A stretch of 64,000 nucleotides of DNA from an uncultured Elusimicrobiaceae bacterium (GCA_964417965.1 CAYQJX010000010.1:318-64317), one strand, 5' to 3'. Counted from the first letter of the stretch, positions 4,994 to 26,888 are shown. Translations and numbers: made by a program. Notes: a model not told the origin generated them from the letters alone.

Positions 4994-5902
4994 CTATTTG
5001 GCTTTCAGCACCGCTATGTTCCCGGTTTTGGATGTGGCGAGCACCTGGAAGGAGCCGCCGCCGGCGAAATCGTTCTTTACAGAGCCAGTGTCGCTCTTCA
5101 GGCTGGCGCTGATAGCGGCCTCCAGCGGAAAGACCAGCGAGATGTCCGCGCCCCCGGTCTTAACGCTGGCCGTTCCGGAAGCGGGGACCGTGGCCCATTC
5201 CATGGCTACGCTGCCGGCGCCGATATCTATAGCCGCCGGCCCGCAGAGTCCTTTCAGAGCCACCTTCGAGCCGCGCCCCTTGACGATCAGCTGTTTAGCG
5301 CAGAACTCCCCGGAAATATCGGCCAGGCCGAGGTCCGCCTCCACCACGCCGGCCATACCGGAAACGTTTACCTTGCCCATGCCGGACTTGGCTTTAAGAT
5401 CCACTCCAGAGGGGGCCCGCACCTTGAAGCCCGCCGGACAAAAGGTCCATTTCCGGTTGCTCTCCGCCTTGAGCAGAAGCGTGCCGTCCCGCAACTCCAC
5501 GCTCAGCGCGCATTTGCGGGGATCGCCGCCAAAAATCTCCACCGTAACGTCCCCTTCTCCGCCCGCCACCGTGACCGGCCCTGTCTCCGTATCCACGGAG
5601 ATCTCTTTTATCTCGGCTGCGGGGAAAATCCAGATCTTCCCCCCTATGATCGGGACCAGTGGCGGCACCGGGTCTTCGGAAGGAGGCAGTTCACTGGGGT
5701 CGCCGGGCTCCGGGATGATGATAGGATCGGGGTTGGGCGGGAGTTCCGGGATGATAGGGGATTCGTCGTCCTTGCCGCCCGAACGGATGGAATCGGCGGC
5801 CGCGCTATAAGCCGTCCCGGACGAAACTACGCCGGCAAAAGCGGCGGCCCCCAGGCCGAAGATCAATATCGCCGCGAGGGCGGCCAGGATCGTCTTTTTC
5901 AT
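4994..5902 (-). CDS. Secreted DUF4097/adhesin-like beta-strand repeat protein with a Pro-rich linker
   Basis: Signal peptide, PIIPELPPNPDP linker and repeated G-x-V/I beta strands; paralog of 9057-9857. Confidence 0.7.
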   Translation of the reverse strand: MKKTILAALAAILIFGLGAAAFAGVVSSGTAYSAAADSIRSGGKDDESPIIPELPPNPDPIIIPEPGDPSELPPSEDPVPPLVPIIGGKIWIFPAAEIKEISVDTETGPVTVAGGEGDVTVEIFGGDPRKCALSVELRDGTLLLKAESNRKWTFCPAGFKVRAPSGVDLKAKSGMGKVNVSGMAGVVEADLGLADISGEFCAKQLIVKGRGSKVALKGLCGPAAIDIGAGSVAMEWATVPASGTASVKTGGADISLVFPLEAAISASLKSDTGSVKNDFAGGGSFQVLATSKTGNIAVLKAK

Positions 5903-6009: not shown

Positions 6010-7500
6010 CTAAGCCCAGGGCGGTTCTTTGCCGGCAACTTTAATCCAGCTTATCGTAGAAAATTTTTCAGGGGAATGCCCGGTCTCCAGGCAGAGGTCG
6101 GTAAACCCCATCTCCTTGAGCTGTACCGCGATCTCCTCCCCCCTTATGCCGTCGCCCAGGTTGGAATCGATGTAGATGGGGGTGTCCTTGGCCACCCCTC
6201 CGGCCGAGGCCAGGAAATCGGCCGGGGCTGAGAAAACAAGGAGCTCTACGCCGTGGACGCGGGCGGCGGTCTTCCAGTTTATGCGCACCAGCGCGTCGTC
6301 GTCAATAAGCACCGCGGTCTTCGGAGCGGCCTGCGGTACCGCTTCCGGCAGGTCTATCGTCACTTCGGTCCCGGCGCCTGGCCGGGAAGTTATACTGAGG
6401 CTGCCGCCCCAGCCCTCGGCGCAGGAGCGGGCGTGGTAAAGGCCGAGCCCGGTGCCGCCGGCCTTGCCGTGCGTGGCGCCCTTCTGCCCCAGCCGGGAGA
6501 GTATCTCCGGCGGTATGCCCTTCCCGTCGTCGCGCACCTTCAGCGTCACCCTGCCGCCGCCCCGGGACAGGCCCACCGACACGCGGCCGGCGCCGTCCAG
6601 GGCCTCCACGGCGTTATTTACGAGGTTGGACACCAGGCGGCGCAGCTCCGCCGGGTGAACCCTGGCCCTGGCTTCTGCTTCTCCGGAAAACTCTATCACC
6701 AGGCCGGCCCGGGAAGAGTACTGGGCCCGTTTCTCGGCCAGCACCGGAGAGACCAGGGACTTAAGGTCGTGCGCGGAAGCGGCCTTCGCGGCCGGGGCGG
6801 CGGCGCCGGGCGCCCTGTAATTTTCAAGCAGGTCCCTGGCTATTTCGCCGATGCGCCCCAGCGCGCCGCGGGCCAGCTCACGCCTTTCCTCAGGCAGGGC
6901 GGAGAAATCCGCGAGGGAGGAGTCCAGCGCGGCCAGCGGCGACCTGATGTCGTGCGCCACCTGGGCGGCCAGCGCCGAATAGGATTCTTTTATGCGCAGG
7001 TCCAGGAGCAGGGTATAGTCTTTTATCAGCCTGCGCCGCTCCCTCAGCGCCACCGGCAGCGAGAGCAGCGCCAGGAGCAGCCAGGACAAGACGCCCCAGG
7101 CGGCCGGAGTCCAGCGGGGGTAGTAGAACAACAGTTCCCCGGCCGGGACCTTCTTGTCTTCGTCGAAATAAACGCCTACCCGGGAAGAAGCGTAGAGCAT
7201 CCCGGAGGAGCTCTCGGCGCCGGCCGGCACGCTGAACCCTTTCTCCTGCCCAGCGGGCTTCCAGGCCATGCCGGCAAAGTCGCGCGAAATGGAGGAGGGC
7301 ATGGTGGTTATCACGTGGCGCGCGTCCCCGGCCAGCAGCGAGTCGCGGGAAGCGGCGGCCAGCTGCCTGGCCAGCCGGGCCTTGAAGTAACCCGTAAAAA
7401 GCAGCGACAGCGCCAAGGCCGCGACAAAGATCACCGCCTGGAAAAGCAGGAACTTAACGGCGAGCTGGCGCACGGATCTTTTAATTTCAGGGTCCATCAC
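6010..7500 (-). CDS. Membrane hybrid histidine kinase (HisKA-HATPase-REC), copy 1
   Basis: Two TM helices; H-box VAHDIRSPL, N-box NLVNNAVEA, DDGKG and GTGLGL; C-terminal receiver (IDDD...IDS...ETG...GKEPPWA). Confidence 0.9.
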   Translation of the reverse strand: MMDPEIKRSVRQLAVKFLLFQAVIFVAALALSLLFTGYFKARLARQLAAASRDSLLAGDARHVITTMPSSISRDFAGMAWKPAGQEKGFSVPAGAESSSGMLYASSRVGVYFDEDKKVPAGELLFYYPRWTPAAWGVLSWLLLALLSLPVALRERRRLIKDYTLLLDLRIKESYSALAAQVAHDIRSPLAALDSSLADFSALPEERRELARGALGRIGEIARDLLENYRAPGAAAPAAKAASAHDLKSLVSPVLAEKRAQYSSRAGLVIEFSGEAEARARVHPAELRRLVSNLVNNAVEALDGAGRVSVGLSRGGGRVTLKVRDDGKGIPPEILSRLGQKGATHGKAGGTGLGLYHARSCAEGWGGSLSITSRPGAGTEVTIDLPEAVPQAAPKTAVLIDDDALVRINWKTAARVHGVELLVFSAPADFLASAGGVAKDTPIYIDSNLGDGIRGEEIAVQLKEMGFTDLCLETGHSPEKFSTISWIKVAGKEPPWA

Positions 7501-9011
7501 TTTCTCCTAAGCCGCCATAAAGGATCTCCGGCGATAGCCGCCGGGTAATTGAATTCCCACGGCGCGCGCGCCAGCGAAGCGTAAGGCATAAGGCCGATAG
7601 GCAGGGCGCGCGCGCCGGCCAGGGTCTTGTAATGCAGTTCCCGGAGCATGGCCATCCGCTCTTTCTTGCCCGGGCAGGCCACGTAAGCGGCCAGCCACTT
7701 CTCTTTGGCCTCCGGGCTCAGGTCGAAGAACTCGAGGTCCAGGTAGTACAGCACCAGGCCGATATCGTCCTGGTAGCCGATGTCGCTGCCCAAAAGGAAA
7801 AAATCGGGTTTAGGCGGGTTTTTCCTGTCCTTGAGCGGCGCGGTATCGGCGTAGGCTATCCCCGGCAGCCATTTTTTTATTTCGTCCCCGTCCAGCCAGA
7901 AATAACTGTAGAGACGCCTGGCCTCTACCGTCTTATTTATCACCAGTTCAGGCCCGCCGTCCAGCCGGGCGCGGACATCTTCCAGCTGGGCCCTGGACAG
8001 CGCGCCCTCCATGTTGAACAGCTGGTGCGGGGTCTCGTTCATGCGCCGACGGGCGGGATAAAGCGCGCGCAGCTTCCTGGCTATAAAAAATCTTTCCTCC
8101 CTGGAAAGCCGCTTCAGCCCGCGGTCGGTGAAGACGATGTAGATAATCCTGACCGGCCGCGTAAAGTGCACGGAGTAGCCGGGGTGGGCGGCGGCGAAGT
8201 CGGCCTTATCCTCCGGTTTAAGGACCAGGCCGATCGACAGATAGTCGGCCGTGCCGCCCGAGAGCGTGGCGAGGGACTCCTCGTTGGTGTTGTATTTTTT
8301 AAGACTGACTATCCTGACCTGCCGCGGCATTTTAGAGGAGTAGCGGTAATGCGCGGGGTTGGCCCGGAGCACCATGTCCCCCAGGCCCAGGTCGGCGTCC
8401 ACGTAATACGGCCCCGACGTATTGCGGTAGTCTGTTATCTTCAGGGTCGCCGGGTCTACGGAGCCGCGCGGGATTACGGAGTAGGCCGCGTTGGTCAGCA
8501 GGTGGAAAAGAAAAGGTTTTGGCCCGCCGAGCTTCATCACCAGCCGGCGGCCACCGTCGCGCACCTCCAGGCCCGGGCAGGGGTCCTGCAGGTTTTTCAG
8601 GCTGCTCCGCCCGCACAGCATGCGGCCGAGGAAACTGTAGCTGGTGCCGCCCAGGACGAAGGCTCTTTTCAGGCTCTGTTCGGCGTCGAAGGCGTCTATC
8701 GGCCGGCCGCCAACGGTCTTAAGGCCGGGGCGCATGGTGAAGACGGCTTCTCTCCCCGCCCATTCGAACTGCCCGGCCAGCTCGGAAACCAGCTCGTTGC
8801 CGGAAGAATAGCCCACCAGCGGGCTGAAGAGGTTCTCGGAAAAAAAGTAGTCCCGCGTGTAGTTGAGCGAGACCGGGTCATAGACGGAAGGAGGGTTGGA
8901 CGAATCCATCAGCAGCTTCAGCGCGCCGGGTTCCTGCGCCCTGAAAACGGCGAAAGCCGAATAAAGCGCCGCCCCGATAAGAAGGGGCGGAAATATTATT
9001 CGGAGTTTCAT
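7497..9011 (-). CDS. Family-5 (OppA/DppA-like) solute-binding protein, no ABC permease adjacent
   Basis: N-terminal anchor; LFSPLV...ELVSELA...FTMRPG and SGPYYV segments; stop overlaps the kinase start. Start set at ATG 9011 (alternative TTG 9047). Confidence 0.72.
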   Translation of the reverse strand: MKLRIIFPPLLIGAALYSAFAVFRAQEPGALKLLMDSSNPPSVYDPVSLNYTRDYFFSENLFSPLVGYSSGNELVSELAGQFEWAGREAVFTMRPGLKTVGGRPIDAFDAEQSLKRAFVLGGTSYSFLGRMLCGRSSLKNLQDPCPGLEVRDGGRRLVMKLGGPKPFLFHLLTNAAYSVIPRGSVDPATLKITDYRNTSGPYYVDADLGLGDMVLRANPAHYRYSSKMPRQVRIVSLKKYNTNEESLATLSGGTADYLSIGLVLKPEDKADFAAAHPGYSVHFTRPVRIIYIVFTDRGLKRLSREERFFIARKLRALYPARRRMNETPHQLFNMEGALSRAQLEDVRARLDGGPELVINKTVEARRLYSYFWLDGDEIKKWLPGIAYADTAPLKDRKNPPKPDFFLLGSDIGYQDDIGLVLYYLDLEFFDLSPEAKEKWLAAYVACPGKKERMAMLRELHYKTLAGARALPIGLMPYASLARAPWEFNYPAAIAGDPLWRLRRK

Positions 9012-9056
9012 CCAGATAATTGTGCCTTTTTTGCCGAGCTCCCGCAATTTGGGCGC

Positions 9057-9857
9057 CTACCTGGCTTTCAGCACGGAAATGTCTCCCGTTCCGGATTTGG
9101 CCTGCAGCTGGAAAGGCCCTTCGGCGGCGAACTCGTTCTTTATGGAGCCGGTACCGCTCTTCAGGTTGGCGCCTACAGCGGCCCCTGCCGGGAAGGTGAC
9201 GGAGATATCCGCGGTCCCGGTCTTTACCCTGGCGGTGCCGGAAGCCGGCGCCTTCAGCCAGTCCAGAGCTACGCTGCCAGTGCCGGTACCTATTTCCACG
9301 GGCCCGCAGAGCCCCTTCAAGTTCACCTTCACGCTGCCGCCTTTGACGGTCAACTGTTTGGAGCAAAGTTCGCCAAAGATGTCGCCGGTGCCGCTGTCCA
9401 CCTCCACCTTGCCGGCCAGGGCCGACAGGGCCACGGCGCCGGTGCCGCTCTTAACGGAAACCGTGCCGGTTATCCCGGAGACGCCTATCTTGCCGGTACC
9501 GGACTTAGCCTCAAAATCTATCCCGGACGGCGCCGACACTTTAAAGCCTGCGGCGCAATCCACCCATTTCCCGCCGAAGCCGAAGGGCCCCTTCACCTTA
9601 AGTATTTTGCTGCTCTCGGCCTTAAGCAGCAGCTTGCCATCCAGCACCCCCATGGTCAGCACGCAGGTGTCGGGCAGGTTCCCGAAAACCTCCACTTTAA
9701 TATCCCCGGGCGAGCCTGCCACCGTGATCGGCCCGACCTCCGTGTTAGCGGAGATTCCGTTTATGCCCTTGGCGGGAAAAGTTTTAATCTCCAAATCCGC
9801 GCAATAGCCCTGCCCGGCCAAAGCGAGCAGCGCTGAAAACATTATGGTCTTTTTCAT
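9057..9857 (-). CDS. Secreted DUF4097-like beta-strand repeat protein
   Basis: Signal peptide, repeated SGTG motifs and GGAGG RBS; paralog of 4994-5902. Confidence 0.72.
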   Translation of the reverse strand: MKKTIMFSALLALAGQGYCADLEIKTFPAKGINGISANTEVGPITVAGSPGDIKVEVFGNLPDTCVLTMGVLDGKLLLKAESSKILKVKGPFGFGGKWVDCAAGFKVSAPSGIDFEAKSGTGKIGVSGITGTVSVKSGTGAVALSALAGKVEVDSGTGDIFGELCSKQLTVKGGSVKVNLKGLCGPVEIGTGTGSVALDWLKAPASGTARVKTGTADISVTFPAGAAVGANLKSGTGSIKNEFAAEGPFQLQAKSGTGDISVLKAR

Positions 9858-9955
9858 TTTTCCTCCAGGAACCTGTGCCGCTCTTTAGAATACGTAAGGA
9901 CCTGCGCAACGGTTGCGTCAGTAATACTACCTCTTTCAGGTCAGAATCGGGGCCT

Positions 9956-10816
9956 TTACTGCCCCGCCGTGGACGCCGGAAAGCGGCTAGCCTGCAAATA
10001 CTTCATTTCCGCCGCGTATTTGCCGCAAACAGAATTATCAAAGCCTTCCTTGCCGTAAAACCTGAAGCACTCAGAGATGTCGCTGGTAATGCAGCCCGAC
10101 GCAGGTTTGCCGATAGCCTCAAGGTTCGCGCACGCTTCCGACTCCGCCACGAAGCCGGGCTTCTTCGTCCTTTGGTAGGCGTTATTTATCTCCAGCTCCC
10201 GCTTCGCGTCGTCCGTTCTGCCAAGGTTCCAGGCAAGCTGCGCGAGATTGGAGCTTTTATCTTCCGCTTTTATGTTTATGGCGGCATCAAGATCGCCGAG
10301 GGCGTTAACCTTGTCGCCCTTGGCGAAATATGCCTCGCCGCGATCCTCCAGTATCCAGGTTTTAACATTCGGATTTTTGGTTGTTTGAAGTACTTTGGTG
10401 AACAAAGCTATTGCCGCATCGTAGTCCCCGCGCAGAAAACTGCTCATCCCCATACCCTGCCGTCCCGCGTCAGTATCCCAAAGGCCATTCCTGCGCAGGT
10501 TCGCGTCTATAAGGTCGGCAAGGTGCCGCATCTTGCCTTGCTGCACTTTAGTTCTCTCTTCGAGAGACATTCCTTTGAGTTGAGGTTTTTTCTTGCGAAG
10601 ATCCGCCATTAACCGGCGGATTTCGTCCTCGGCGGAGCCGGCATCTTCCCTGAATTTCTTGTCCGTATCTGGGCATTCAGCGCGGTCATCATTGCTCCGG
10701 CCGGCGCTTTTTGTCTGGACCGGTTTCACTTCCGGAGTCTCTCCGGGGCCGGCAAGTGCGGGCCCGGGAACAAGAACAACGGACAAGAGCGCATAAACGA
10801 ATAAACACCATTTCAT
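9956..10816 (-). CDS. Secreted TPR-repeat protein
   Basis: Signal peptide; GDYDAAIALFTKVL...RGEAYFAKGDKVNALGDLDAAI TPR pattern; ATGA overlap with the upstream gene. Confidence 0.7.
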   Translation of the reverse strand: MKWCLFVYALLSVVLVPGPALAGPGETPEVKPVQTKSAGRSNDDRAECPDTDKKFREDAGSAEDEIRRLMADLRKKKPQLKGMSLEERTKVQQGKMRHLADLIDANLRRNGLWDTDAGRQGMGMSSFLRGDYDAAIALFTKVLQTTKNPNVKTWILEDRGEAYFAKGDKVNALGDLDAAINIKAEDKSSNLAQLAWNLGRTDDAKRELEINNAYQRTKKPGFVAESEACANLEAIGKPASGCITSDISECFRFYGKEGFDNSVCGKYAAEMKYLQASRFPASTAGQ

Positions 10817-11589
10817 AAATTCTCCTCACCATTGCTACAGGATACTCCGCCTTGCATGTTCCCGGCACCTCCGGCCGCAACAGCCTCAAGCACGTCTACA
10901 CTGCGGCTGGCGGGGACCAGCAGCAGGCCCAGCTGATCCTTAAGCGCGACGGAGAGCGCCTCGCTGCTACCGCCGGCCCACGCCAGTTCTACGCGGTATA
11001 GTCCGGCCAGACCTGTCTCGTCCAGGACCGGCATGGAGAACTTCCCCTCGAGCGCCCTCGCCAAGCCGTTCATCTTCAGGCCGGCAGAACGGAGATGGCC
11101 CCGCCCGTCGCTGCACGAGCCGCCGGCGATGCCCGGGGAAAGGCCGGGCGTCGCGGCGCCCTTGTCGCGGCGGAGCAGCAGTACCCGCTTTTCTTTCTTG
11201 AGCTGCCGCACTTCCACGCCATATACAGCCTTTACGGCCTGTCGCAGCAGCGGTTTCATAATCTCTTCCGAAGCCTTCGGCACATGCACCAGGAAATCGT
11301 AATTTTTTCCCGGCAGCTCCGGCGCGATTTCTATGTTCCACCCGCTAATATCGTAAGCATGGGAAAGCATGGAGCACAGGTCCAGGCGGGTATACCTGAG
11401 CGTCGCCGTTTTGCTGTTGGAAACGTACACCAGGCCCGTTTGCCCGCTGTCCGCAGAACGGGTAACCTGCACGGTGAGAACCTCCCGGAGAACATCGCTT
11501 ACGTCCCCCTCCGGGCCCGCCGCGGGCTGCGCATTAAGGAAGTCCTTTACGATCTCGGCTGTTTCGCCGGCGCCGGGTTTTATCTTCAT
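10813..11589 (-). CDS. TIGR03435/DUF3738-like protein
   Basis: VLDETGLAGLYRVELAW and ALKDQLGLLLVP...VDVL C-terminal signature; start at 11589 overlaps the GT9 stop (ATGA). Confidence 0.65.
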   Translation of the reverse strand: MKIKPGAGETAEIVKDFLNAQPAAGPEGDVSDVLREVLTVQVTRSADSGQTGLVYVSNSKTATLRYTRLDLCSMLSHAYDISGWNIEIAPELPGKNYDFLVHVPKASEEIMKPLLRQAVKAVYGVEVRQLKKEKRVLLLRRDKGAATPGLSPGIAGGSCSDGRGHLRSAGLKMNGLARALEGKFSMPVLDETGLAGLYRVELAWAGGSSEALSVALKDQLGLLLVPASRSVDVLEAVAAGGAGNMQGGVSCSNGEENL

Positions 11590-12368
11590 TTTTTTATATC
11601 CGTCCGCCCGGCACCAAGGGTCTTCAAAGCCCTGTCCACTATCTCGCCGGCGGCTATGCTGTCCATGCCGCCGGTTCCCTCCGCGGCAGTTATCGCCTGG
11701 TGCTCCGCATACCCGTGCATGGTGGCGGCCGCGGACCCCCAAAGAGAGATAACGGGGGTGCCGGTCATGTGCGCGGCATGCATGAGGAAGTTGTCGGAGG
11801 TGATCAGCAGGTCCATCCGCTTTAGCAGCAGCACCGCCTCCTGGGGAGTGGTCACTCCGGCCAGCGAATAGGCGTATTTAACTTTTTCCGCCCCGCCCTG
11901 CCCGAGCTGCACCACCAGCGCCCCGCTGTCTCCGAGGGCCTTGGCCACCTCTCCCCACTTGCTCCTGGCCATCATCTTGCCCGGAGAAGCACTGTCCGGG
12001 GCGATGGCCACGTTCTTTGCCTGCCACGGGATCATGGAAGCCACCAGGTCGTCCGAAACCCCGTCCATAGGCAGGTACAGGGTTTCCGGCGCGGGCAGTT
12101 CCAGACCGAAGAGTTTAGCCAGACGCTGGAAAGCGCGGGAAGCGCCGCCGGCTTCGGCCCTGTCAACGGTCAGCACCGGCGCGCCCTTAGGCAGATAATC
12201 TATCTTTTCTATGGCCGGGTGGCCGGCCAGCATTCCGGCCGAGGCAGCGCGCCGGATGACGTTATACTTCTTCCCCAGCCTGTCGTGAGCCAGCTTAAGC
12301 ACCCCCGAGAGCAGCAGCGTGCCGCCCAGGCTTTCCGGAGCGTCTATCCATTGTGTCTCAGTTGTCAT
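11586..12368 (-). CDS. Glycosyltransferase family 9 (heptosyltransferase-like)
   Basis: LITSDNFLMHAAHMTGTPVISLWG and LAGVTTPQEAVLLLKRMDL GT9 C-terminal motifs. Confidence 0.75.
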   Translation of the reverse strand: MTTETQWIDAPESLGGTLLLSGVLKLAHDRLGKKYNVIRRAASAGMLAGHPAIEKIDYLPKGAPVLTVDRAEAGGASRAFQRLAKLFGLELPAPETLYLPMDGVSDDLVASMIPWQAKNVAIAPDSASPGKMMARSKWGEVAKALGDSGALVVQLGQGGAEKVKYAYSLAGVTTPQEAVLLLKRMDLLITSDNFLMHAAHMTGTPVISLWGSAAATMHGYAEHQAITAAEGTGGMDSIAAGEIVDRALKTLGAGRTDIKK

Positions 12369-13467
12369 GTTTGGCTCCCCCCTCGTAACGTAAGCCGGTT
12401 ATCGGCTCGAAATACTTTGTCAGGAACAGTTTAGTCGCGGCGCACCAGCCGGTCTTATGGCGCAGGTCACCGTGAAGGGCCAGGGAGTTCATGGGGCACC
12501 CGCCGTGGCAGATGCCCCAGAAACGGCACCCCCCGCACTCACCGGCCTGCAGCACTGCGGAACGCTCCAGCCAGTCCTTGCGCTTCTCCCTGCCGAACAC
12601 CTCGCCGATGGTGGTATCCGCGATGTTGCCGTAATTGACAAGGTTCCAGTCGGCGGAGCAGCTGCAATGCGAAAGCTCGCCCCGCGGGCCGATGTACATG
12701 TGATTATTCCCGCAGCGGCCGCCCCTGGTGCAGAGCAGGCCAGTGTCCTTACTCGTGTAGTAGCCGTAGTATTCGGAGAAGGGACGCACCATGCCGCGCC
12801 AGCCCGGGGTCTTCCACCAAAGCTTGAACATCTCACCCAGGAAATCCGCGTACTCTTCGGCCGTTATCCCGAGATCCCCCTGGTTCCCGCCTTGCACAAG
12901 CACCGGGTTTATCATCAGGTTGTCCGTCAGATTGGTCAGGAATTTCAGCAGTTCCCGCGGAACGGCCAGGGATTTTTTGGTCACCACGTAGATGATGCCC
13001 CACCGCATATCGCTTTCCTCCAGCAGGGACACGCCTTTGAGAAAGAGCTTGTTATAGCTGCCGGAATCCCTGCCGCCGCCGAACCCGCGCACATTATCCA
13101 GCGGGTCATAGCTGGTCCCGACGTTCGTTATGCCCAGGTTGCGCAGCGCGGCCACCAGTTCAGGATTGAGCAGCGTGAGGTTGGATTGTATGAGATTGGA
13201 GATCCTGCTCTTGGTGGAAGGGCAACACTCGGCCTGCAGCCGCGCCGCCTTGTTCAGGTAGTCGGCCCCGAGCATCAGCACTTCCCCGCCGTGCCAGGTC
13301 AGGTTGACATGCTCGGCCGGCCGGGCCTTAAGGTACTCGTCCACGCGGGTGAACACCAGCCTCAGCATGTCCAGAGACATGTCCGGAACGCTTTCTTTAT
13401 GCACCACGTCGCAATAGGCGCAATTGGCGTTGCAGCGCTCGGTAGCTTTGAAAATTATTGTCGGCAT
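12358..13467 (-). CDS. Radical SAM/SPASM maturase (anSME-like branch)
   Basis: CNANCAYC; WHGGE; SPASM cysteines C..C...HCSC...CGGCRFWGICHGGCP...C. Confidence 0.88.
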   Translation of the reverse strand: MPTIIFKATERCNANCAYCDVVHKESVPDMSLDMLRLVFTRVDEYLKARPAEHVNLTWHGGEVLMLGADYLNKAARLQAECCPSTKSRISNLIQSNLTLLNPELVAALRNLGITNVGTSYDPLDNVRGFGGGRDSGSYNKLFLKGVSLLEESDMRWGIIYVVTKKSLAVPRELLKFLTNLTDNLMINPVLVQGGNQGDLGITAEEYADFLGEMFKLWWKTPGWRGMVRPFSEYYGYYTSKDTGLLCTRGGRCGNNHMYIGPRGELSHCSCSADWNLVNYGNIADTTIGEVFGREKRKDWLERSAVLQAGECGGCRFWGICHGGCPMNSLALHGDLRHKTGWCAATKLFLTKYFEPITGLRYEGGAKHDN

Positions 13468-14285
13468 TTGTTGTTAACCTCATCGGCGGCTTCCAGCAGC
13501 GCCGTTATGAACGGCTTCATCCTGCAGGCGTTGGCGTCCTCGCTTTTCCTGAAACCGCACATCCGCCACGCGGGGCAAAGGGCGCAGCCCCCGAAGTTCA
13601 GCAGCGGGGCGCGGCGCTTTTCCCTGGCGGACAGGCTGAGCCCCGCGAAGTCCACAGCCTCCGGCTTATCCAACGTTCCCACAAAGTCACCTTTAGCCAG
13701 GGCGGCGCGGGAAACGGCGATATTACCCGCCTCGTCGCAGTGGAAGAAGGTCCCCTCTTTTTCCAGATAAAGCTCGTTGTAATCCGCCTGCTGGTTCTTG
13801 TACTCGGTATAAGCGTAGAGGAAGGGCTCCACCGAAGTGTGGGCCACTTTACCGCAGGAGTCATAAGCCAGCAGGTCTTCCATGGCGTCCCAGTCGGCGT
13901 TGTCCCCGTCCAGGATCAGCCCCGTCTTCACCATCAGCGAGGACAGCACGCGCGCCGCGGTGATATTTTCCGGAGTGGCCGGGAAATAAAAACGCGCCGC
14001 CGAGCTGCGCAGATTCTCAAGGGCCGGGGCACAGTCCAGAAGGCGCCCGGCGCTTTGCAGGCGGAAAACCAGCGGCAGGTCCAGCCATTCTTTTTTCAGC
14101 TCCACCCCGGCAAGGCTGTCGGCGGAGACCTCTATGCAATGCAGCCTGTCGCGGCTTACGGCCGCGGCTATCCTGCCGATCTCCCCGGCGTCCCCGGTGC
14201 GCACGGCGAGGCGGCGGGCGCCCGTTTTAGCGATGACGGCCCCGCTGAAAGGAACCACAAAGATTTGCTTTGTCGTATCTGTCAT
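13455..14285 (-). CDS. Degenerate radical-SAM-like protein: SPASM-type Cys tail but no CxxxCxxC
   Basis: FHCDEAGNI and CALCPAWRMC near the C-terminus; overlaps both flanking rSAM genes (start reset to ATG 14285). Confidence 0.6.
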   Translation of the reverse strand: MTDTTKQIFVVPFSGAVIAKTGARRLAVRTGDAGEIGRIAAAVSRDRLHCIEVSADSLAGVELKKEWLDLPLVFRLQSAGRLLDCAPALENLRSSAARFYFPATPENITAARVLSSLMVKTGLILDGDNADWDAMEDLLAYDSCGKVAHTSVEPFLYAYTEYKNQQADYNELYLEKEGTFFHCDEAGNIAVSRAALAKGDFVGTLDKPEAVDFAGLSLSAREKRRAPLLNFGGCALCPAWRMCGFRKSEDANACRMKPFITALLEAADEVNNKCRQ

Positions 14286-15283
14286 ATTTTGAAAGCGCGT
14301 ACGCCACCCTCCCGGTCTATCTCGCGCAGCACGTGCGCCGCGCAGCCGCCGTCGCATACCCCTTTTTTTCGCCAGGAGCAGCTGTCGCATTTTTCGTAGA
14401 TGCCGCCGGCTTCCTGCCTGATGTTCTTAGTGAACGTCCTGAAGTATTCCATCATGCCGTTGTAATCGTCGAAGTCGTACACCGATTTGCGGTGCGTGCC
14501 GGACAGCGGGAAGCAAGCCCACGCCATCATGTCCGGACCTATGTCCACGGGACCGCCGCAGGTGAATTTATGAACGCCCTTGGTGGCTTTATACAGCTGC
14601 CCCAGCTTTTCGTCGCTGAAAAGGCACATGGGGAACCCGCAGTCCAGCCCCGGGCAGACGTTCTGCTGGTCGAACACCGGCAGGTGGTTCAGCAGTCTGT
14701 CCACGATCCCCTGGATGTCGGGGATGGAGATGAAGGAATTATTCTCCCGCAGGATCGGGTGCGTAAGCCCCAGCCGTATGGAGCGCTTAAGCCCGTAACG
14801 GTTTATGTACTTGAAAAGGAAATCCAAACTGAAGTCTTTGCGGTAGATGTTAAAACCCGGCGTCACATGCGCCCCGAACTCCTCAAGGAACTCCTCCACC
14901 CGTTTAGTTTCGCTTTCCGGGGAGAAGGCCGGGTCGTTAAGGTTGCAGAGGAAGGAAACTTTCCTGTCGGCCTGCGGAACGGTCTTGTAAACCCGGCGCA
15001 GGTCATTTTTCACCTTCTCGGACATGATGCCGCTGCTGAAGACCGTAACGGAAAAATCCCGCTTAAGCGCGTAGGCCAGGAAGTCGGCGAACTGCGGGTG
15101 CAGCGTCGGCTCGCCCCCGAGGAACCTCATTTCGCGGCAGCCGCCCTGCGCGAACAGATCCGCGAGATAGACCAGGTCTTCCCATTTGATCACGTCGCCG
15201 CCGTCGTTCTCACCCATCTGCTTCTTGGCGAAGCAGTACGGGCAGGAACGGACGCATTTTTGTGTAAGCAGTATGTTTGGCAT
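14282..15283 (-). CDS. Radical SAM/SPASM protein
   Basis: CVRSCPYC; FLGGEPTLH; CGGPVDIGPD...AC and CDSC...CDGGC. Confidence 0.88.
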   Translation of the reverse strand: MPNILLTQKCVRSCPYCFAKKQMGENDGGDVIKWEDLVYLADLFAQGGCREMRFLGGEPTLHPQFADFLAYALKRDFSVTVFSSGIMSEKVKNDLRRVYKTVPQADRKVSFLCNLNDPAFSPESETKRVEEFLEEFGAHVTPGFNIYRKDFSLDFLFKYINRYGLKRSIRLGLTHPILRENNSFISIPDIQGIVDRLLNHLPVFDQQNVCPGLDCGFPMCLFSDEKLGQLYKATKGVHKFTCGGPVDIGPDMMAWACFPLSGTHRKSVYDFDDYNGMMEYFRTFTKNIRQEAGGIYEKCDSCSWRKKGVCDGGCAAHVLREIDREGGVRAFKI

Positions 15284-15321
15284 ATTAGGTTCTTCTTTTC
15301 GGCTTTCTTGCCCCGGGCGTC

Positions 15322-15354
15322 AGCCGCGGCTGCGGTAATTCCGCCGCCGCGGCT
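15322..15354 (-). promoter_or_regulatory. GC stem-loop after precursor 1 (no U tract)
   Basis: AGCCGCGGC-T-GCGG / CCGC-C-GCCGCGGCT arms. Confidence 0.55.
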
Positions 15355-15368
15355 TCCCCAGGCTGCAC

Positions 15369-15668
15369 TTAGTCTTTGTACTGCACGTACTGATCATAAT
15401 AGTAGGTGTTCCCGTTACTATAACCAGCGCCGTTCGTATAGGTCCCGCTCCTGTCGCTGTTTTCCGCCGCAGCCGCCTGCAAACCGGTGACAGCAGAAGC
15501 CACATGTCCTATGGTGCTGAACTTGGGCCCCTGTACTGCGGCCGTAGCCGCATGCGCCGCCGGCACGAAAGCCCCGATGAGCTGAAGACCCATGCCCACC
15601 CCTACCGAAGCTTTCGCCATCCGTTTAAGCGCCTCGCGCCGCGAAACCCTTCCGTCTTTAACTTCCAT
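15369..15668 (-). CDS. Putative RiPP precursor 1: Tat-type signal peptide and Tyr/Asn-rich C-terminal core
   Basis: AAGGAGG RBS; SRREALK twin-Arg motif, h-region and AHA cleavage site; core GTYTNGAGYSNGNTYYYDQYVQYKD; first gene of the rSAM operon. Confidence 0.75.
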   Translation of the reverse strand: MEVKDGRVSRREALKRMAKASVGVGMGLQLIGAFVPAAHAATAAVQGPKFSTIGHVASAVTGLQAAAAENSDRSGTYTNGAGYSNGNTYYYDQYVQYKD

Positions 15669-15722
15669 TTTCTCCTCCTTACTGCCTTTTCGGAAGCCGA
15701 TGCCCCCGATCGCATCTCTCGA

Positions 15723-15738
15723 AGCAATTATAATGCCA
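15723..15738 (-). promoter_or_regulatory. Sigma-54 (-24/-12) promoter of precursor 1
   Basis: TGGCATTATAATTGCT on the minus strand, GG-N10-GC spacing. Confidence 0.8.
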
Positions 15739-15790
15739 CCCCTGAGAAACCGCTTAAAGGGCCCTTCCCCTGGGGTTAGGGACGACGGAT

Positions 15791-15826
15791 ATTCTCATTT
15801 AAGACCGCTTATTTTCATTTGAAAAT
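15791..15826. promoter_or_regulatory. Tandem palindromic activator-binding sites (candidate UAS)
   Basis: ATTCTCATTTAAGACC (15791) and ATTTTCATTTGAAAAT (15811), starts 20 bp apart. Confidence 0.65.
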
Positions 15827-15831
15827 GGCAA

Positions 15832-15851
15832 CCGCCGGGGAAGCCCGGCGG
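15832..15851 (-). terminator. Probable terminator hairpin
   Basis: CCGCCGGG-GAAG-CCCGGCGG downstream of the 15873-16400 gene. Confidence 0.45.
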
Positions 15852-15872
15852 CTGCGATAGCGGGAGGTGTTA

Positions 15873-16400
15873 TTATTTAGCCGCTTCGACCGTAACTTCA
15901 ATGCGGTTCTTCGGTTCGTCCAGGATAAGGGTGCTTTTCCCGAGCAGGAGCCGCGTCGCGGCCTGGAAACTCACGAACGCAACCTGTGCGCCCGCCCCTG
16001 GCACAAGGAGAGGTCCCTGCAGTTCGAACTGGGATTCAAGGATAACACAATTCCTGTCCTGCGGATCCGTTAAAGGCTTGAACCTGGCCTTGCTCATATA
16101 GCGTTTCATGTCGTACTTACGCTTACCGTCGACTTCTCCCAGGTCCACATTGGTCTCCCCGCTGGAGGAGAACTCGGCGTCCGCCCTGTCCACAGCCGTC
16201 AGGCTGCCGGAACTCTTCAGGATCTCCGTACTTATTTTGTAGGTTATCCTGTAATTGTCTACGCCGTACCTTACCATCTGTACCGGCCGATTATCCGCGC
16301 CCTCGCCCATTTTCGGACCCTTCTCGGCGGCATTGCCCTGGCCCGCCAAGGCAAGCGCCATCACGCCGAAAAGCGCGGCCACTATCATTCTTTTACCCAT
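15873..16400 (-). CDS. Secreted hypothetical protein
   Basis: Signal peptide MGKRMIVAALFGVMALALAGQGNA after a GGAG RBS; preceded by a sigma-54-type promoter. Confidence 0.65.
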   Translation of the reverse strand: MGKRMIVAALFGVMALALAGQGNAAEKGPKMGEGADNRPVQMVRYGVDNYRITYKISTEILKSSGSLTAVDRADAEFSSSGETNVDLGEVDGKRKYDMKRYMSKARFKPLTDPQDRNCVILESQFELQGPLLVPGAGAQVAFVSFQAATRLLLGKSTLILDEPKNRIEVTVEAAK

Positions 16401-16464
16401 TTTCTTGTCCTCCCGTTTATCAGACCTGACTTTGAAAACAATTTTAACGCTTTGCAAAAGGGGG

Positions 16465-16480
16465 AGCATTTTCCATGCCA
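16465..16480 (-). promoter_or_regulatory. Sigma-54-type promoter
   Basis: TGGCATGGAAAATGCT on the minus strand (GG-N10-GC). Confidence 0.6.
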
Positions 16481-16509
16481 GCAGGATAGCCCGGCAATGC
16501 TATTTCCAT

Positions 16510-16594
16510 ATGGAAATAAAAAAAGCGGGCTTACTGCCCGCTTTCGTGGTTTCTGGGTAGCTCCGGGGGGTCAGGCCCAGGGCGGTTCTTTGCC
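16510..16594 (-). repeat. Imperfect direct repeat, copy A: kinase 3' end plus terminator
   Basis: Aligns with 22141-22221; includes the hairpin AAAGCGGGC-TTACT-GCCCGCTTT. Confidence 0.8.
16571..16594 (-). pseudogene. Orphan 3' remnant of a hybrid kinase gene (GKEPPWA-stop)
   Basis: 24 bp identical to 22198-22221; no kinase ORF upstream of it. Confidence 0.7.
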
Positions 16595-16661
16595 CGCGCC
16601 TTTGTGCCCGGTGAAGTCACCAACCTGCATGATATTTACGGGCTTGCGGCCCGTCAGTGCC

Positions 16662-18440
16662 CTAGCTCATATATTTGCTGCTGGATTCCCAGAGCTTGCG
16701 GTAGTACGGCAGTCCGGCCAACAGCTCCTCATGGCTTCCCTCTCCCGCGATGTTGCCATTGCGCAGGACAACGACACGCTCGGCTAATTTTATCGCGCCA
16801 AGCCGGTGCGTGATGATGACGGCCGTGTGCCCCTTCTTAAGTTCCATGAAGTCCTGATATATGCGGTCTTCCTCAAACGGATCTATCGCGGCCGTGGGTT
16901 CGTCCAGCACGATCAGTTGATGTCCCCTGTAATACGCCCTGGCGATGGACAGGCGCTGCCATTCACCGCGGGATAATTCGGTACCATCGAATTCTTTACT
17001 GAGCAATGTCTCCAGACCCCGGTCCAGCCGTTTAAGGTCGACGTGGAAATCCGCGGCAGCCAGCGCGGATCGCACCCGCTTGTCGGAACGGTCCTGCTCA
17101 TTCGAGAACGCGCTGATCCTGACGTTGTCCCCCAGCGTGAGCTGGTACCGCTGGAAATCCTGAAAAACGCACGACACGTTACCGTAAAGGTCGTCTTTCA
17201 CGATATCTTTAAGAGCGATGCCGCCCGCGAGGACCTCGCCTTCCCCGGGTGCGTACAAGCCGAGCAGCAGCTTGGACAGCGTGGTTTTTCCGGACCCGTT
17301 CTCCCCTACGACGGCAACGGTCTCGCCAGCACGGAGGATCAACGAGATGCGGCTTAAAGCCGGCGTGGATGCGCCCGGGTACGTAAAACCGACCTCTTTC
17401 ATGACAAGGTCTTTCCTATCTCCGCAGCGCAGTTCACCGTACTTCTGCTCCTGCATTTCGAAAAAGGAGAAATACTTTTCCAGTCGGCCGGCGCTGACGG
17501 AAAGCTCTCCGAGCCTGCTGTCGAAAACTTCCTCCATCATCGCGAACATCTCCATGGTAGCCGCCAGGATGGCCGAGAACGCACCTATGGAGATGCTGCC
17601 CTTGATCAGCAGCGAGATCAGGAACACCAGGATGCTCATATACCCGGCCAGCGAGAACGCCTTGGCGGCGGTCTCCACGCCCTGGCTTTTCAGGTCGGCC
17701 CTGTATTTAAGCTGCTGGATCTTCTTGAAGGTCAGGTCGTAAAGCAAGAGGAAGAAGCCACTGGCGCCCAAAGCCCGCGTCTCCTTCAGGTATGTCCGGG
17801 ATACCAGGCATTCCTTGTAGTGCTCTTCTTTCCGGCGCAGCGCGACGGACTGGTCTTCAAGCCGGGTGTAGTAGCGGGAGCGCAGGAGATGTGAGGCCAG
17901 GACCGGGACGAAAACAAGGGGCAGTATCAACGGCAGCAGCGGCTGTACGCGGTACAGGTAAGCTCCCATGAAACCGAAATAGGGGATATAGAGGCACAGG
18001 ATATCCATGAGTACATGGACCAATTTGCGCACGTCGGCTGCTCCCCGGTAGGCTTGGCTGATCCGGTCCAGCACGTCCGGATCCTCGAACCCGGCTGCCG
18101 GCAGCCTGGCGGCTTTCTGGTTTAAGAGCTCGGTCATTTTCTGACCGCTCTTGCCGGCATAGAATTCACCGTAAAAGTTGGCGACACCGTCCACAGCTTC
18201 GTCCAGCACCTTTATAACGGCGAACACACAGAGGTACCACAGCACCGACGAGAATGGGACGCGGCCTGCGGCCAGCGCGACGACCTGGTCGAAGAACTTC
18301 TGTAGCCAAACCGTGGTAACGACCAGCATGACGGCGTCCAGGAACGTGAACGCGTACTCTATGACGAAATGCCGGGGCGAGACGCGGAACACCTGCGGGA
18401 TAGCCCTGAGGGCCTGAAGCAGGAAATGCGGCAGGGTCAT
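16662..18440 (-). CDS. ABC exporter, TMD-NBD subunit B
   Basis: GENGSGKTT Walker A, LSRGEWQR signature, LDEPT Walker B; start at 18440 overlaps the upstream stop. Confidence 0.88.
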   Translation of the reverse strand: MTLPHFLLQALRAIPQVFRVSPRHFVIEYAFTFLDAVMLVVTTVWLQKFFDQVVALAAGRVPFSSVLWYLCVFAVIKVLDEAVDGVANFYGEFYAGKSGQKMTELLNQKAARLPAAGFEDPDVLDRISQAYRGAADVRKLVHVLMDILCLYIPYFGFMGAYLYRVQPLLPLILPLVFVPVLASHLLRSRYYTRLEDQSVALRRKEEHYKECLVSRTYLKETRALGASGFFLLLYDLTFKKIQQLKYRADLKSQGVETAAKAFSLAGYMSILVFLISLLIKGSISIGAFSAILAATMEMFAMMEEVFDSRLGELSVSAGRLEKYFSFFEMQEQKYGELRCGDRKDLVMKEVGFTYPGASTPALSRISLILRAGETVAVVGENGSGKTTLSKLLLGLYAPGEGEVLAGGIALKDIVKDDLYGNVSCVFQDFQRYQLTLGDNVRISAFSNEQDRSDKRVRSALAAADFHVDLKRLDRGLETLLSKEFDGTELSRGEWQRLSIARAYYRGHQLIVLDEPTAAIDPFEEDRIYQDFMELKKGHTAVIITHRLGAIKLAERVVVLRNGNIAGEGSHEELLAGLPYYRKLWESSSKYMS

Positions 18441-20236
18441 GCGGGCACCTCCCGGTGCTCCTTGTACCATTTTGCCTGTGCCGTGAACATCTCCGCGTAA
18501 TAACCGTTCCGGGCAAGAAGGATGTCGTGCGGGCCTTGTTCGATGATCCGGCCTTCGTTCATGACTATTATTTCGTCGGCCAGCCGTGCCGCCGCCAGGC
18601 GGTGCGTGATGTATAAAGTGGTCATCCGCCCGTTAAGGCCGGACCTTCTGACGGTCTCGTAGAGGTTATTCTCGGCTAGCACATCAAGGGCCGCCGCCGG
18701 TTCGTCGAACACAAAAAGCCTGGCTTCCCGGCCGAAACTCCTGGCCAGTGCCAGCAGTTGCCATTGCCCGCCGGACAGGTCCGTGCTGTCCGGCTCCAGT
18801 TTACCCAAAGCGGTATCGGCGCCTTTTGGGAACGAACGGACTTTCACGGCCAGGCCCATCTGCTCCAGCAGCGCGTCTATCTTTCCCGCGGGAAGAGCGG
18901 GATTTCCCAATCTCAGTTGTTCCGTTACCGTCAGTTGATACTTGGCGTATTCCTGGTAAAGCACCGAGAAGTACGCTTTCCTTTCCGCGGCGGTGAAGGA
19001 GTTTATATCCCTGTTGTTCAGCAGTATCCTGCCAGTATAGTTCCGGTAGAGGCCCGTCAGCAACTTTATCACGGTCGATTTCCCGCAACCGTTCCTGCCC
19101 ACGAAGGCATACTGCTTGCCGGGAAGGATGGTAAGCGAAAAATCGCGGAGAATCTCCCTTTCGGACCCGGGATACTTAAAGCTAACGCGGTCGAAAACCA
19201 AGCTTTCCAGCGGCATGCCGCAAATGCGCTCATCCGGGGCCAGGTCGCTGCCGGGCACCTCCGAAAGCCGCTGCGCGCACTCCAAGTCTTCCAGGTACAG
19301 CCGGTTGCCGGTGTAGTCTTTGAGCAGTCCCGAAAGTTGCCAGGACAAGGTATGGATAAGCGCCGAAAGGGAGATCACCAGGCTTATAAAGACGCCGGCC
19401 GTCATCCTGTTCTCCTTTACGAGCAGCAGCAAAAGCAGGGAAACAGCTACGAGCAGCAGCGTGAAGACCGCGCTTACGCTCTTTGAGCGGAGAAAGATCT
19501 TCCTGTCCGCCTTAAAATCCAGCTCTATTCTCCGGTCCGTCTCCTCGCCCCAGAATTTGCCTATCCTGTCGCCAAAGCCGAACAGCGTCCTCTCCGAGGC
19601 CGCTTCCCTGGAAGACAGCAGGGACCTGAAATACTTGGCCTTCCTCGCGTGGGGAGCTATCTGCGCACCGGCTTCGTACGCCTCGGTCCCGCTCTTCTTG
19701 GCGATCATGACCACCGGAAAGGCCAGCAGCAGGCACGCGACGGCGGCCGGAACGGAGGAGTGGCCTATAATGGCGATAAGCCCCAGGACGCTGAGGATAA
19801 TCGCGGCCAGGTCCAGCAGATTAGTGAAACCGCGCTCTATCGAGCCGGGAAGGTCTTCGCCTACGCGCTCAAGCAGGTCGTAGGTCTCGTCGTTCTCGAT
19901 ATGCTCGTAGGAAAGACGGTTGAGCTTTGTGACAAGCTGCGGTTTCAGCTTGTTTTCAAGACGCATGTTGAAGCTGAGCTCCGCGAGCCGGGCCGCGGCC
20001 TGGAGCAGATAGCCGGCCATTAATACGGCAAAAAGCCCCGCCAGCGGAAAAAAGGCGGCGGACAGGCTTTGGGCGGAGATAACTCCGGGCAATACGTCAA
20101 GCAGGCCGGCGATGGCCAGCGTCTGCAGCACAGGCAGGGCGGCCTGCGCGGTGCGGAGGAGCAGCAGGCCCGCGGTTAACGGCCTGCTGCAATGGAAAGA
20201 TATGGCGATGTACCTTAGGTTCTTGAGAGTATTCAT
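18437..20236 (-). CDS. ABC exporter, TMD-NBD subunit A
   Basis: GRNGCGKST, LSGGQWQ, FDEPAA; N-terminal TM domain with no C39 peptidase domain. Confidence 0.88.
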   Translation of the reverse strand: MNTLKNLRYIAISFHCSRPLTAGLLLLRTAQAALPVLQTLAIAGLLDVLPGVISAQSLSAAFFPLAGLFAVLMAGYLLQAAARLAELSFNMRLENKLKPQLVTKLNRLSYEHIENDETYDLLERVGEDLPGSIERGFTNLLDLAAIILSVLGLIAIIGHSSVPAAVACLLLAFPVVMIAKKSGTEAYEAGAQIAPHARKAKYFRSLLSSREAASERTLFGFGDRIGKFWGEETDRRIELDFKADRKIFLRSKSVSAVFTLLLVAVSLLLLLLVKENRMTAGVFISLVISLSALIHTLSWQLSGLLKDYTGNRLYLEDLECAQRLSEVPGSDLAPDERICGMPLESLVFDRVSFKYPGSEREILRDFSLTILPGKQYAFVGRNGCGKSTVIKLLTGLYRNYTGRILLNNRDINSFTAAERKAYFSVLYQEYAKYQLTVTEQLRLGNPALPAGKIDALLEQMGLAVKVRSFPKGADTALGKLEPDSTDLSGGQWQLLALARSFGREARLFVFDEPAAALDVLAENNLYETVRRSGLNGRMTTLYITHRLAAARLADEIIVMNEGRIIEQGPHDILLARNGYYAEMFTAQAKWYKEHREVPA

Positions 20237-20287
20237 GTTGCTTTCGCCGCGGCCGTATTACGGCCATTTAACCGCTGCAGCGGCAGA

Positions 20288-21370: not shown

Positions 21371-21642
21371 TTTGCCAGCTCCCCGGAAGCAGCGATGAAC
21401 CCCTTCTCGACCAGGAGTTCCGTAAGTCCGGTCATATCAGCATCCAGCACTCTTTCCTCCACGTCATAGCTTTTTAGCAGCTCGGCCCTGATGGCCTCAT
21501 AGTCATGGAGCTTCCCGATAAGCAGCCAGAAATCTTTCCCGACATTGTCGAGGGCGTAGATGAACGAGTTCCGCTCATCGCGGAGATACAGCGTGTCCAG
21601 GATCACCTGCCACGCCACGTTAAACGTATATGTCAAACGCAT
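21367..21642 (-). CDS. PqqD/RRE peptide chaperone
   Basis: 91 aa; IYALDNVGKDFWLLI...ELLKSYDVEERVLDADMTGLTELLVEKGFI; ATGA overlap with the rSAM gene. Confidence 0.85.
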   Translation of the reverse strand: MRLTYTFNVAWQVILDTLYLRDERNSFIYALDNVGKDFWLLIGKLHDYEAIRAELLKSYDVEERVLDADMTGLTELLVEKGFIAASGELAK

Positions 21643-21855: not shown

Positions 21856-21867
21856 ACCCGGGACCGT

Positions 21868-26876: not shown

Positions 26877-26888
26877 TTTCCACAAAAA

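Follow-up and report, generated by a model that had tools for sequence, protein, structure and literature searches.

We analyzed a 64,000-nucleotide (nt) stretch of DNA from an uncultured Elusimicrobiaceae bacterium (GCA_964417965.1 CAYQJX010000010.1:318-64317; hereafter the window) and found two gene pairs, SBP1-HK1 and SBP2-HK2, each encoding a family-5-type solute-binding protein (SBP) followed immediately by a sensor kinase. We consider it reasonably probable that each pair is a binding-protein-dependent sensor kinase with an exchangeable input and a constant output. All four genes are on the minus strand. SBP1 (7497-9011) has 504 amino acids (aa), an ATG start and an N-terminal signal or anchor segment; SBP2 (23874-25292, 472 aa) has the family-5 fold and no Pfam match. 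HK1 (6010-7497, 495 aa) is a two-transmembrane sensor kinase with a periplasmic loop of ~95 aa, a HisKA H-box and HATPase_c, and HK2 (22198-23880, 560 aa) is a two-transmembrane sensor kinase whose periplasmic domain has ~105 aa and whose linker has ~70 aa, again with HisKA and HATPase_c.

In the mechanism we propose, a secreted, peptide-type SBP that has lost its transport role would capture an extracytoplasmic ligand and would report this to the kinase made from its own mRNA, by way of the kinase's small periplasmic domain. The SBP and the sensor domain would form an exchangeable input cassette, and everything from the H-box onward, that is, the transmitter plus a truncated receiver, would be the constant output module.

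The stop codon of each SBP gene overlaps the start codon of its kinase gene, at the coordinates given in a preliminary description of this DNA, which had proposed two orphan SBP-kinase couples with divergent sensors and a conserved output. At the SBP1/HK1 junction (...AGGAGAAAG-TGATGG), the SBP1 stop codon TGA is at 7499-7497, and HK1 has two possible starts: an ATG at 7497, which overlaps SBP1 by 1 nt and has a good Shine-Dalgarno sequence (AGGAG) 9 nt upstream, and a GTG at 7500, which gives a 4-nt overlap (AGGAGAAAGTGATGG). At the SBP2/HK2 junction (AGATGGTAAAAA), the HK2 ATG (23880-23878) and the SBP2 stop codon TAA (23876-23874) fall within ATGGTAA, a 7-nt overlap. SBP/kinase overlaps of 4 or 7 nt were found again in at least 16 related loci. 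Hence, the start-stop overlaps are not due to chance.

A comparison of HK1 and HK2 bore out both halves of the earlier claim about the kinases: the C-terminal halves are 54% identical (179/331 residues, E 1e-114), and the N-terminal 160-230 aa have no similarity. The motifs AAQVAHDIRSPLAALD, GKAGGTGLG, KDTPIYIDS.LG and GKEPPWA each occur in both proteins, as does the H-box AHDIRSPL. The two kinases share a common layout, with two transmembrane segments flanking a periplasmic segment of ~100 aa, then the H-box, HATPase_c (E 4e-25 and 8e-24) and a tail of ~103 aa. The HisKA match is above the cut-off for HK2 (28.6 bits) and below it for HK1 (16.6 bits).

The tail (6013-6321 in HK1 and 22201-22509 in HK2, both minus strand) had no Pfam match at E up to 10 and no sequence match in the PDB, and phmmer did not relate it to CheY, Spo0F or PhoB. 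Its structural model, built from 42 sequences (pLDDT 92.9), has the topology beta1-alpha1-beta2-alpha2-beta3-alpha3-beta4-(short alpha4)-beta5, where the protein terminates, so helix 5 is absent. Every one of its 50 best Foldseek matches is a receiver domain or a response regulator that contains one (including Rv1626, PhyR, EvgA and PhoP; TMq 0.65-0.74), and the tail was identified by this comparison of folds alone. Across the 42 sequences, the Asp of IYIDS and the Lys of GKEPP are invariant, the Thr of TGH is at least 90% conserved, and the DDD after beta1 is at least 70% conserved. The predicted fold and the retained Asp/Thr/Lys set support the earlier label of hybrid kinase, with PF00072 not recognizable by sequence, and support the tail as a predicted, unusual receiver domain that lacks helix 5 and is invisible to Pfam. 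Two other loci (L033 1-1685 and L045 46-1429) have separate, adjoining open reading frames (ORFs) for the kinase core and for the receiver-like tail. Hence, the tail can be a stand-alone protein of ~115-130 aa, unless these are frameshifts from the assembly of metagenome-assembled genomes (MAGs).

In metagenomes, an exhaustive search by profile gave 3,174 clusters (50% identity) with the tail, 2,509 of them at E <= 1e-10, and the tail is nearly always the extreme C-terminus of a 450-900-aa protein. In a genome set with one genome per species, there were 53 tail loci, nearly all in Elusimicrobia MAGs and often several per genome; the few others are in Bacteriovorax, Oligoflexia, Nitrospirales, Legionellales and Deltaproteobacteria bins and in one bin labelled Geoanaerobacter. 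The closest relative of the window is Elusimicrobia bacterium GWB2_63_22 (locus L004). Most tail proteins are kinases with a 450-570-aa ORF immediately upstream that overlaps or abuts the kinase start, typically by 4 or 7 nt. A family-5-like gene is directly upstream in 23 of the 53 tail-kinase loci, and these 23 ORFs, SBP1 and SBP2 included, form one set connected by BLAST and HMM matches. Of 40 upstream ORFs, 11 match PF00496, the best at E 4e-42; another upstream partner is a Peripla_BP_4 protein.

Both SBPs had been described as family 5, a label that holds for SBP1 by profile and for SBP2 by predicted fold, with neither protein above the PF00496 cut-off. SBP1 scores 20.7 bits against PF00496 (gathering cut-off 32.4), and 35 of its 48 relatives carry the domain. 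Corroborating this, the SBP1 family profile matches the solved structures of OppA3 (the best, E 1e-14), AapF, MppA, OppA, DppE, PrgZ and NikA. Among the SBP2 relatives, PF00496 is present in just 2 of 65, and the other 63 have no Pfam match. The AlphaFold model of SBP2 (57-sequence alignment; pLDDT 90.9, pTM 0.82) matched only family-5 SBPs among its top 50 Foldseek hits in the PDB (E down to 1e-24, TM 0.6-0.72), including 5u4o, YliB, GbpA, DppA, OppA and NikA at 10-15% identity. These matches support SBP2 as a member of the family-5 (cluster C, three-lobed) type at the level of the predicted fold only. In agreement with the description of the binding proteins as very different, SBP1 and SBP2 have no BLASTP similarity (best E 3.6), and a profile-profile comparison of the two families gave a weak yet collinear alignment (probability 16%); hence, we do not claim homology of SBP1 and SBP2 from sequence.

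We found no BPD_transp-type importer permease in the 64 kb window, which was our coverage of this genome and in which practically every ORF of at least 100 aa was scanned with Pfam, nor among the called genes of the relatives' loci. The sole ABC (ATP-binding cassette) proteins in the window are two fused exporter-type proteins (16662-20236). Hence, SBP1 and SBP2 are rightly called orphan, since no importer permease is encoded with them. The SBP1-HK1 adjacency is kept in relatives 52-61% identical, in unrelated neighborhoods (a dcw cluster in one case and SecA/ClpP in another), and there, too, no permease is nearby. Hence, SBP1-HK1 is a two-gene module.

These results bear on whether the SBPs could be ordinary uptake components of an Opp/Dpp-type importer encoded elsewhere, with the adjacent kinases incidental or only regulatory (e.g. 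for flux sensing). The family-5 fold is the classic fold for peptide and nickel uptake, the Vibrio SBP known as CBP serves both transport and ChiS signaling (PMC8050422), and our view of the genome spans 64 kb. We nevertheless consider an uptake role quite unlikely: the start-stop overlaps are kept in at least 16 related loci, the adjacency persists across different neighborhoods without permeases, the SBP is co-inherited with the sensor type, the window has no importer permease, and the sequences are far from those of transport SBPs, with Pfam missing most SBP2 relatives. The conserved coupling and the lack of a nearby permease instead support the SBPs as dedicated kinase partners rather than transporter components, as the preliminary description implied.

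In 25 pairs, the identities of SBP and sensor rise and fall together (Mantel rho 0.68; 0 of 2000 permutations), and the link of the SBP to the transmitter is much weaker (rho 0.35). Where the SBPs of two pairs are unrelated, the sensors are unrelated too (18% identity), yet the transmitters are still 46% identical. The H-box QVAHDIRSPLAAL is near-invariant; its core AHDIRSPL is identical in 22 of the 25 pairs and has 1-3 substitutions in the others.

The exchange of input can be read directly from the DNA of the closest relative, GWB2_63_22. Its sequence is 94% identical to the window over 29049-27227 (the regulator gene through the riboswitch, both described below), has no homology over 27226-23151 (radical SAM gene, SBP and sensor), where it carries a different cassette, and is 92% identical again from 23150, ~11 nt upstream of the codon for the H-box His, to the HK2 stop codon. 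Homology resumes from just upstream of SBP1 (9056-3649, 87% identity), and the 13 kb between the two pairs (9057-22203) is absent from the relative. Hence, by collinear DNA homology without the 13-kb segment, both pairs are in tandem in GWB2_63_22, in a single riboswitch-headed operon. The G+C content at third codon positions is 0.53 for SBP2 and the adjoining 248-aa gene, 0.62-0.81 for the 5-27 kb region and ~0.88 for core genes, which marks 5-27 kb as accessory. Evidently, input cassettes have been exchanged on a constant output.

SBP2 and HK2 are the last genes of an operon whose order is riboswitch, peptide, radical SAM enzyme, 248-aa protein, SBP2 and HK2, with overlapping ends; no strong terminator was found between that of the riboswitch and a predicted terminator 3' of HK2 (22146-22176, minus). 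The riboswitch is a 2'-dG-II purine-class aptamer (RF03165; 27267-27337, minus; 85 bits vs a gathering cut-off of 60, E 1e-20, model positions 1-71 of 71), followed by an expression platform (27243-27273, minus) with a 12-bp terminator and T7. GGGAAA is common to the 5' arm of the terminator and the P1 3' strand, and the unliganded minimum-free-energy structure has the terminator formed and P1 open. Since the terminator arm overlaps the P1 strand, ligand is predicted to switch the operon on. The env1 representative of this class is known to bind 2'-deoxyguanosine selectively (PMC6847200), which is, by membership of the RF03165 class, the predicted ligand of the window aptamer. The riboswitch would thus gate expression of the SBP2-HK2 input module.

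All 12 loci tested carry the aptamer ahead of a related operon, with 81.8-86.1 bits (L004, L005, L007, L008, L012, L013 with two copies, L016, L017, L019, L020, L024 and L027), and its core motif is in 15 loci. In every inspected riboswitch-headed cassette that has an SBP (HK2-type, L004/L008-type, and SBP1-type in L027 and L030), a small ORF with a signal peptide lies ahead of the SBP gene; in the cassettes of other types, this small signal-bearing ORF follows the riboswitch with or without a radical SAM gene.

In the window, the first gene after the riboswitch (26963-27175, minus) encodes a 70-aa secreted peptide with a Sec-signal-like N-terminus, a conserved leader and a hypervariable C-terminal core; across 11 loci, the leader is 56% identical and the core 20%. 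It is followed by the radical SAM enzyme (25998-26885, minus), with a sub-cut-off best match to the YydG peptide-epimerase family, and by a 248-aa protein of no assigned function (25262-26008, minus), which is conserved between the radical SAM gene and SBP2. The likeliest ligand of SBP2-HK2 would be this operon's own secreted peptide, probably modified by the radical SAM enzyme.

Among HK2-type cassettes (n = 11-14), mean pairwise identity is 83% for the ectodomain, 68% for the tail and 65% for the dimerization/histidine-phosphotransfer (DHp) and catalytic (CA) domains, vs 41% for the SBP, 39% for the radical SAM enzyme, 27% for the 248-aa protein and 20% for the peptide core. An SBP that reads a diversifying peptide would be expected to leave such a pattern, with SBP and core steeply divergent next to a conserved ectodomain. 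HK1-type pairs differ in that the SBP and the ectodomain have diverged to a like extent (43% and 42%).

The SBPs could also sense other ligands, such as peptides from the cell wall, oligopeptides as nutrients or a metal chelate, so that the peptide-modification genes would be regulated cargo rather than the source of the signal. Members of family 5 bind muropeptides, nickel, opines, sugars and peptides, SBP1-HK1 adjoins the dcw/mur cluster in one relative, and no peptide gene is upstream of SBP1 in the window. We regard such ligands as somewhat unlikely, given the signal-peptide ORF that precedes the SBP in every riboswitch-headed cassette inspected and the divergence of the SBP2 family, which parallels that of the peptide core.

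Beside the operon we found genes for an NtrC-type response regulator (28654-30000, plus), with a receiver domain, a sigma-54 AAA+ domain with GAFTGA and a helix-turn-helix, and for a 350-aa sigma-54 paralog (27413-28465, minus), of which only the C-terminal DNA-binding/RpoN-box part is recognizable and the N-terminal 200 aa are unmatched. Both genes adjoin the riboswitch-headed operon and recur beside tail-kinases, the paralog in L004, L024, L031, L048 and L053; in L048 the riboswitch directly precedes the regulator genes. The regulator homologs were seen through matches to an antisense ORF (28621-29763, minus), which we rejected as a conserved partner in its own right because it is a shadow of the regulator gene. 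A sigma-54-like site (28511-28525) is upstream of the paralog.

In 649 kb, we counted 28 strict TGGCAY-N5-TTGC sites on the kinase strand and 4 on the other, with ~1 expected per strand; they lie mostly just downstream of kinase genes, ahead of genes for secreted proteins or peptides. The constant output would most likely reach the adjoining NtrC-type regulator and, through it, the sigma-54 promoters just 3' of the kinase genes. It is plausible that this output is shared by both pairs. The preliminary description had proposed that different ligands feed one shared phosphorelay. The variable input, from SBP and sensor, and the conserved output stand, but no Hpt (PF01627) protein or domain was found in the scanned ORFs of the window; hence, a multi-step phosphorelay is not borne out.

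The pairs could also be independent two-component inputs to separate, unlinked regulators, their C-terminal likeness arising from common descent and recombination and the tail serving as a phosphate sink or pseudo-receiver. Four findings fit: no Hpt is in the window, the DHp of HK1 differs from that of HK2 in distal alpha-1 and alpha-2, at positions where partner specificity is usually set, the usual output face of a receiver is reduced in the tail, with helix 4 short and helix 5 absent, and the tail is on a separate ORF in two loci. Against this, a single NtrC-type regulator is beside the array and recurs with the family, HK1 orthologs in other genomes share the DHp of HK2 almost exactly, unlike the HK1 of the window, the tail is the best-conserved part of HK1-type proteins (59%), and the closest relative has both pairs in one operon. 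We consider separate outputs unlikely, and we favor the constant output module.

More speculatively, Elusimicrobia may use riboswitch-gated peptide signaling in which a hypervariable peptide, often modified by a radical SAM enzyme, is read by a co-diversifying SBP docked on a nearly invariant ectodomain; cassettes of peptide, maturase, SBP and sensor would be swapped at the H-box by recombination, and the NtrC-type activator and a dedicated sigma-54 paralog would switch on clusters for ribosomally synthesized and post-translationally modified peptides (RiPPs) behind each kinase. We put this forward tentatively, as a possibility with somewhat less than even chances.

Several observations count against the exchangeable-input, constant-output design or against its peptide-signaling extension. 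Contact between SBP and kinase, the identity of the ligand and the route of phosphotransfer are points that we infer. The Mantel signal could stem from linkage alone. In the window, SBP1-HK1 lacks both a riboswitch and its own peptide gene. The radical SAM enzyme scores 67.2 bits against the YydG model TIGR04078 (cut-off 300), so YydG is its best-matching family only. The second half of the DHp helix pair of the window HK1 has drifted from the family consensus; hence, this HK1 may not share the partner of HK2. The tail of HK1 and HK2 may act as a sink, a relay or a docking site. The regulator is within 6 kb of just ~10 of the 53 loci, and sigma-54-like sites at two mismatches are below the shuffle mean in the whole window. 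This two-mismatch count is not above chance, and information on such sites comes solely from the strict pattern, which is enriched across loci.

The region 3' of HK2 contains a RiPP-like cluster. A sigma-54 promoter-like site (TGGCATATAAATTGC; 22042-22056, minus) is 61 nt upstream of a small ORF for a 37-aa Cys-rich precursor-like peptide (MKKTYSTPVLTVVSNCAKTATRCGHGNACNGKSGEVL; 21868-21981, minus). Profile matches then identify a PqqD-like chaperone (21367-21693, minus), a radical SAM/SPASM maturase (20288-21370, minus) and two ABC exporters (18437-20236 and 16662-18470, minus). In our model, this promoter would drive the whole precursor, PqqD, radical SAM/SPASM and exporter cluster. At 16521-16610 (minus), a relic of a kinase 3' end ('GAGKEPPWA*', ~75 nt) with a terminator aligns at the DNA level with the 3' end of HK2 (22130-22230). 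Since the relic adjoins the 3' side of the ABC exporters, the RiPP cassette (16.6-22.2 kb) is bracketed by direct repeats. Locus L038 has a stand-alone 157-aa tail gene at the position syntenic to the relic.

A second RiPP-like cluster (12358-15738, minus) is conserved in L038. A sigma-54-like site (15724-15738, minus) precedes a 99-aa peptide with a twin-arginine translocation (Tat) signal and a Tyr-rich end (GNTYYYDQYVQYKD), followed by a radical SAM gene (14282-15283, minus), a 311-aa protein without assignment and a radical SAM/SPASM enzyme. The latter is most like cyclophane or sulfatase maturases of the DynA/DarE/anSME type, with matches (E 7e-41) that stay below the cut-offs.

In L011 (6500-7500), the DNA 3' of a kinase of the HK2 type has two sigma-54-like sites, each ahead of a peptide of 80-88 aa. 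These peptides have a conserved leader (MN.II.ALNLT.GAVLTLEK.PDR.EFEAL) and a Cys-rich core, and may be another kind of output cargo for the circuit. A candidate sigma-54 site before SBP1 (9044-9058, two mismatches) was dropped since its register is not conserved in L004.

Paralogous secreted proteins flank the first pair, one downstream of HK1 (4994-5902) and one upstream of SBP1 (9057-9857), both on the minus strand and with 73% DNA identity over ~720 nt. They have weak LiaG-family similarity, and tail genes in L039 and L045 are flanked by genes of this kind. Elsewhere in the window, two adjoining giant ORFs (34554-40656, plus; 1054 and 971 aa) are E/A/R/L/K-rich, probably coiled-coil and without a Pfam match, and their composition accounts for the strong AT skew of this region (up to 0.42). 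A toxin-antitoxin-like pair (1374-2047, minus) consists of a Gp49/HigB-like protein (125 aa) and an Xre-type helix-turn-helix protein (109 aa). The window also encodes a CheY-like protein at 45435-45812.

Our literature searches found no description of the SBP/kinase/radical SAM/precursor combination and no reports of RiPPs or riboswitches in Elusimicrobia. Binding-protein-dependent kinases are known from a handful of systems, with family-5 use just in ChiS-CBP. The family described here adds a modular design, with exchangeable SBP/sensor inputs on a constant output, and a link to peptides with pherotype-like diversification; it would offer a tractable model for how co-receptors give one kinase scaffold new ligands. 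It may be the first peptide cell-cell signaling system proposed for Elusimicrobia. The 2'-dG-II riboswitch class gains a host phylum and a regulon, which, if true, would be its first organism and biological context.

In the known binding-protein-dependent kinases (LuxPQ, TorTS, HptSA and ChiS-CBP), the SBP gene is typically associated with the kinase gene (PMC8050422). In both window pairs, too, the SBP gene is tied to a kinase gene and not to a transporter, through overlapping codons and conservation across loci. Of these systems, Vibrio LuxPQ, which with LuxN and CqsS signals through LuxU to LuxO, is the closest in logic, and ChiS-CBP is the closest in protein family. The output of the LuxU to LuxO route is an NtrC-type sigma-54 activator; an NtrC-type regulator adjoins the SBP2-HK2 operon here and recurs near relatives, and it may be the acceptor for the kinases. 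LuxN, LuxQ and CqsS also resemble the window kinases as several hybrid kinases with different sensors and related transmitters. Like the window SBPs, LuxP is a transporter-less periplasmic SBP co-transcribed with a hybrid kinase that has kinase and receiver domains (PMC8050422).

The differences from LuxPQ are in the parts. LuxP is of the sugar type (Peripla_BP_4), whereas the window SBPs are of the family-5 type, and the ectodomain of LuxQ is a large double-PAS/dCache, whereas the window kinases have loops of ~100 aa. The predicted receiver of the window kinases is a truncated, Pfam-invisible variant, unlike that of LuxQ, and no LuxU-like Hpt was found in the window. A further contrast with LuxPQ is that a gene-encoded peptide is the probable signal and that a riboswitch gates the operon.

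ChiS-CBP is the only established case of a PF00496 SBP that controls a hybrid kinase without an Hpt partner (PMC8050422, Table 1; bioRxiv 10.1101/2020.01.10.902320). CBP, which binds a chitin oligosaccharide, also serves an ABC importer and has its gene alongside those of the importer, whereas no importer permease is encoded near the window SBPs. ChiS has a dCache-like ectodomain and itself binds DNA, whereas the window kinases have small loops, and the CBP and ChiS genes are not translationally coupled, unlike the window pairs. The sigma-54 paralog beside the cassette distinguishes the window from both LuxPQ and ChiS-CBP.

The HK2-type cassettes also resemble peptide autoinduction systems. 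In NisK/NisR, AgrC/AgrD and the B. subtilis YydF* epipeptide acting on LiaRS, a secreted, gene-encoded peptide, sometimes modified by a radical SAM enzyme or otherwise, is sensed by a membrane kinase, and receptor and peptide diversify together as pherotypes. YydG is also the closest likeness of the window radical SAM enzyme, below the family cut-off; equivalents of YydH and YydIJ are absent from the window cassette, unlike in the Yyd system. In peptide autoinduction systems, the kinase binds the peptide directly, and there is no SBP co-receptor, sigma-54 output or riboswitch.

In 2017, the 2'-dG-II class counted 12 members, which came from metagenomes and could not be assigned to a taxon (PMC5473149). 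The copies described here are in genomes of Elusimicrobia, where they head peptide/SBP/kinase operons and not genes of nucleotide metabolism.

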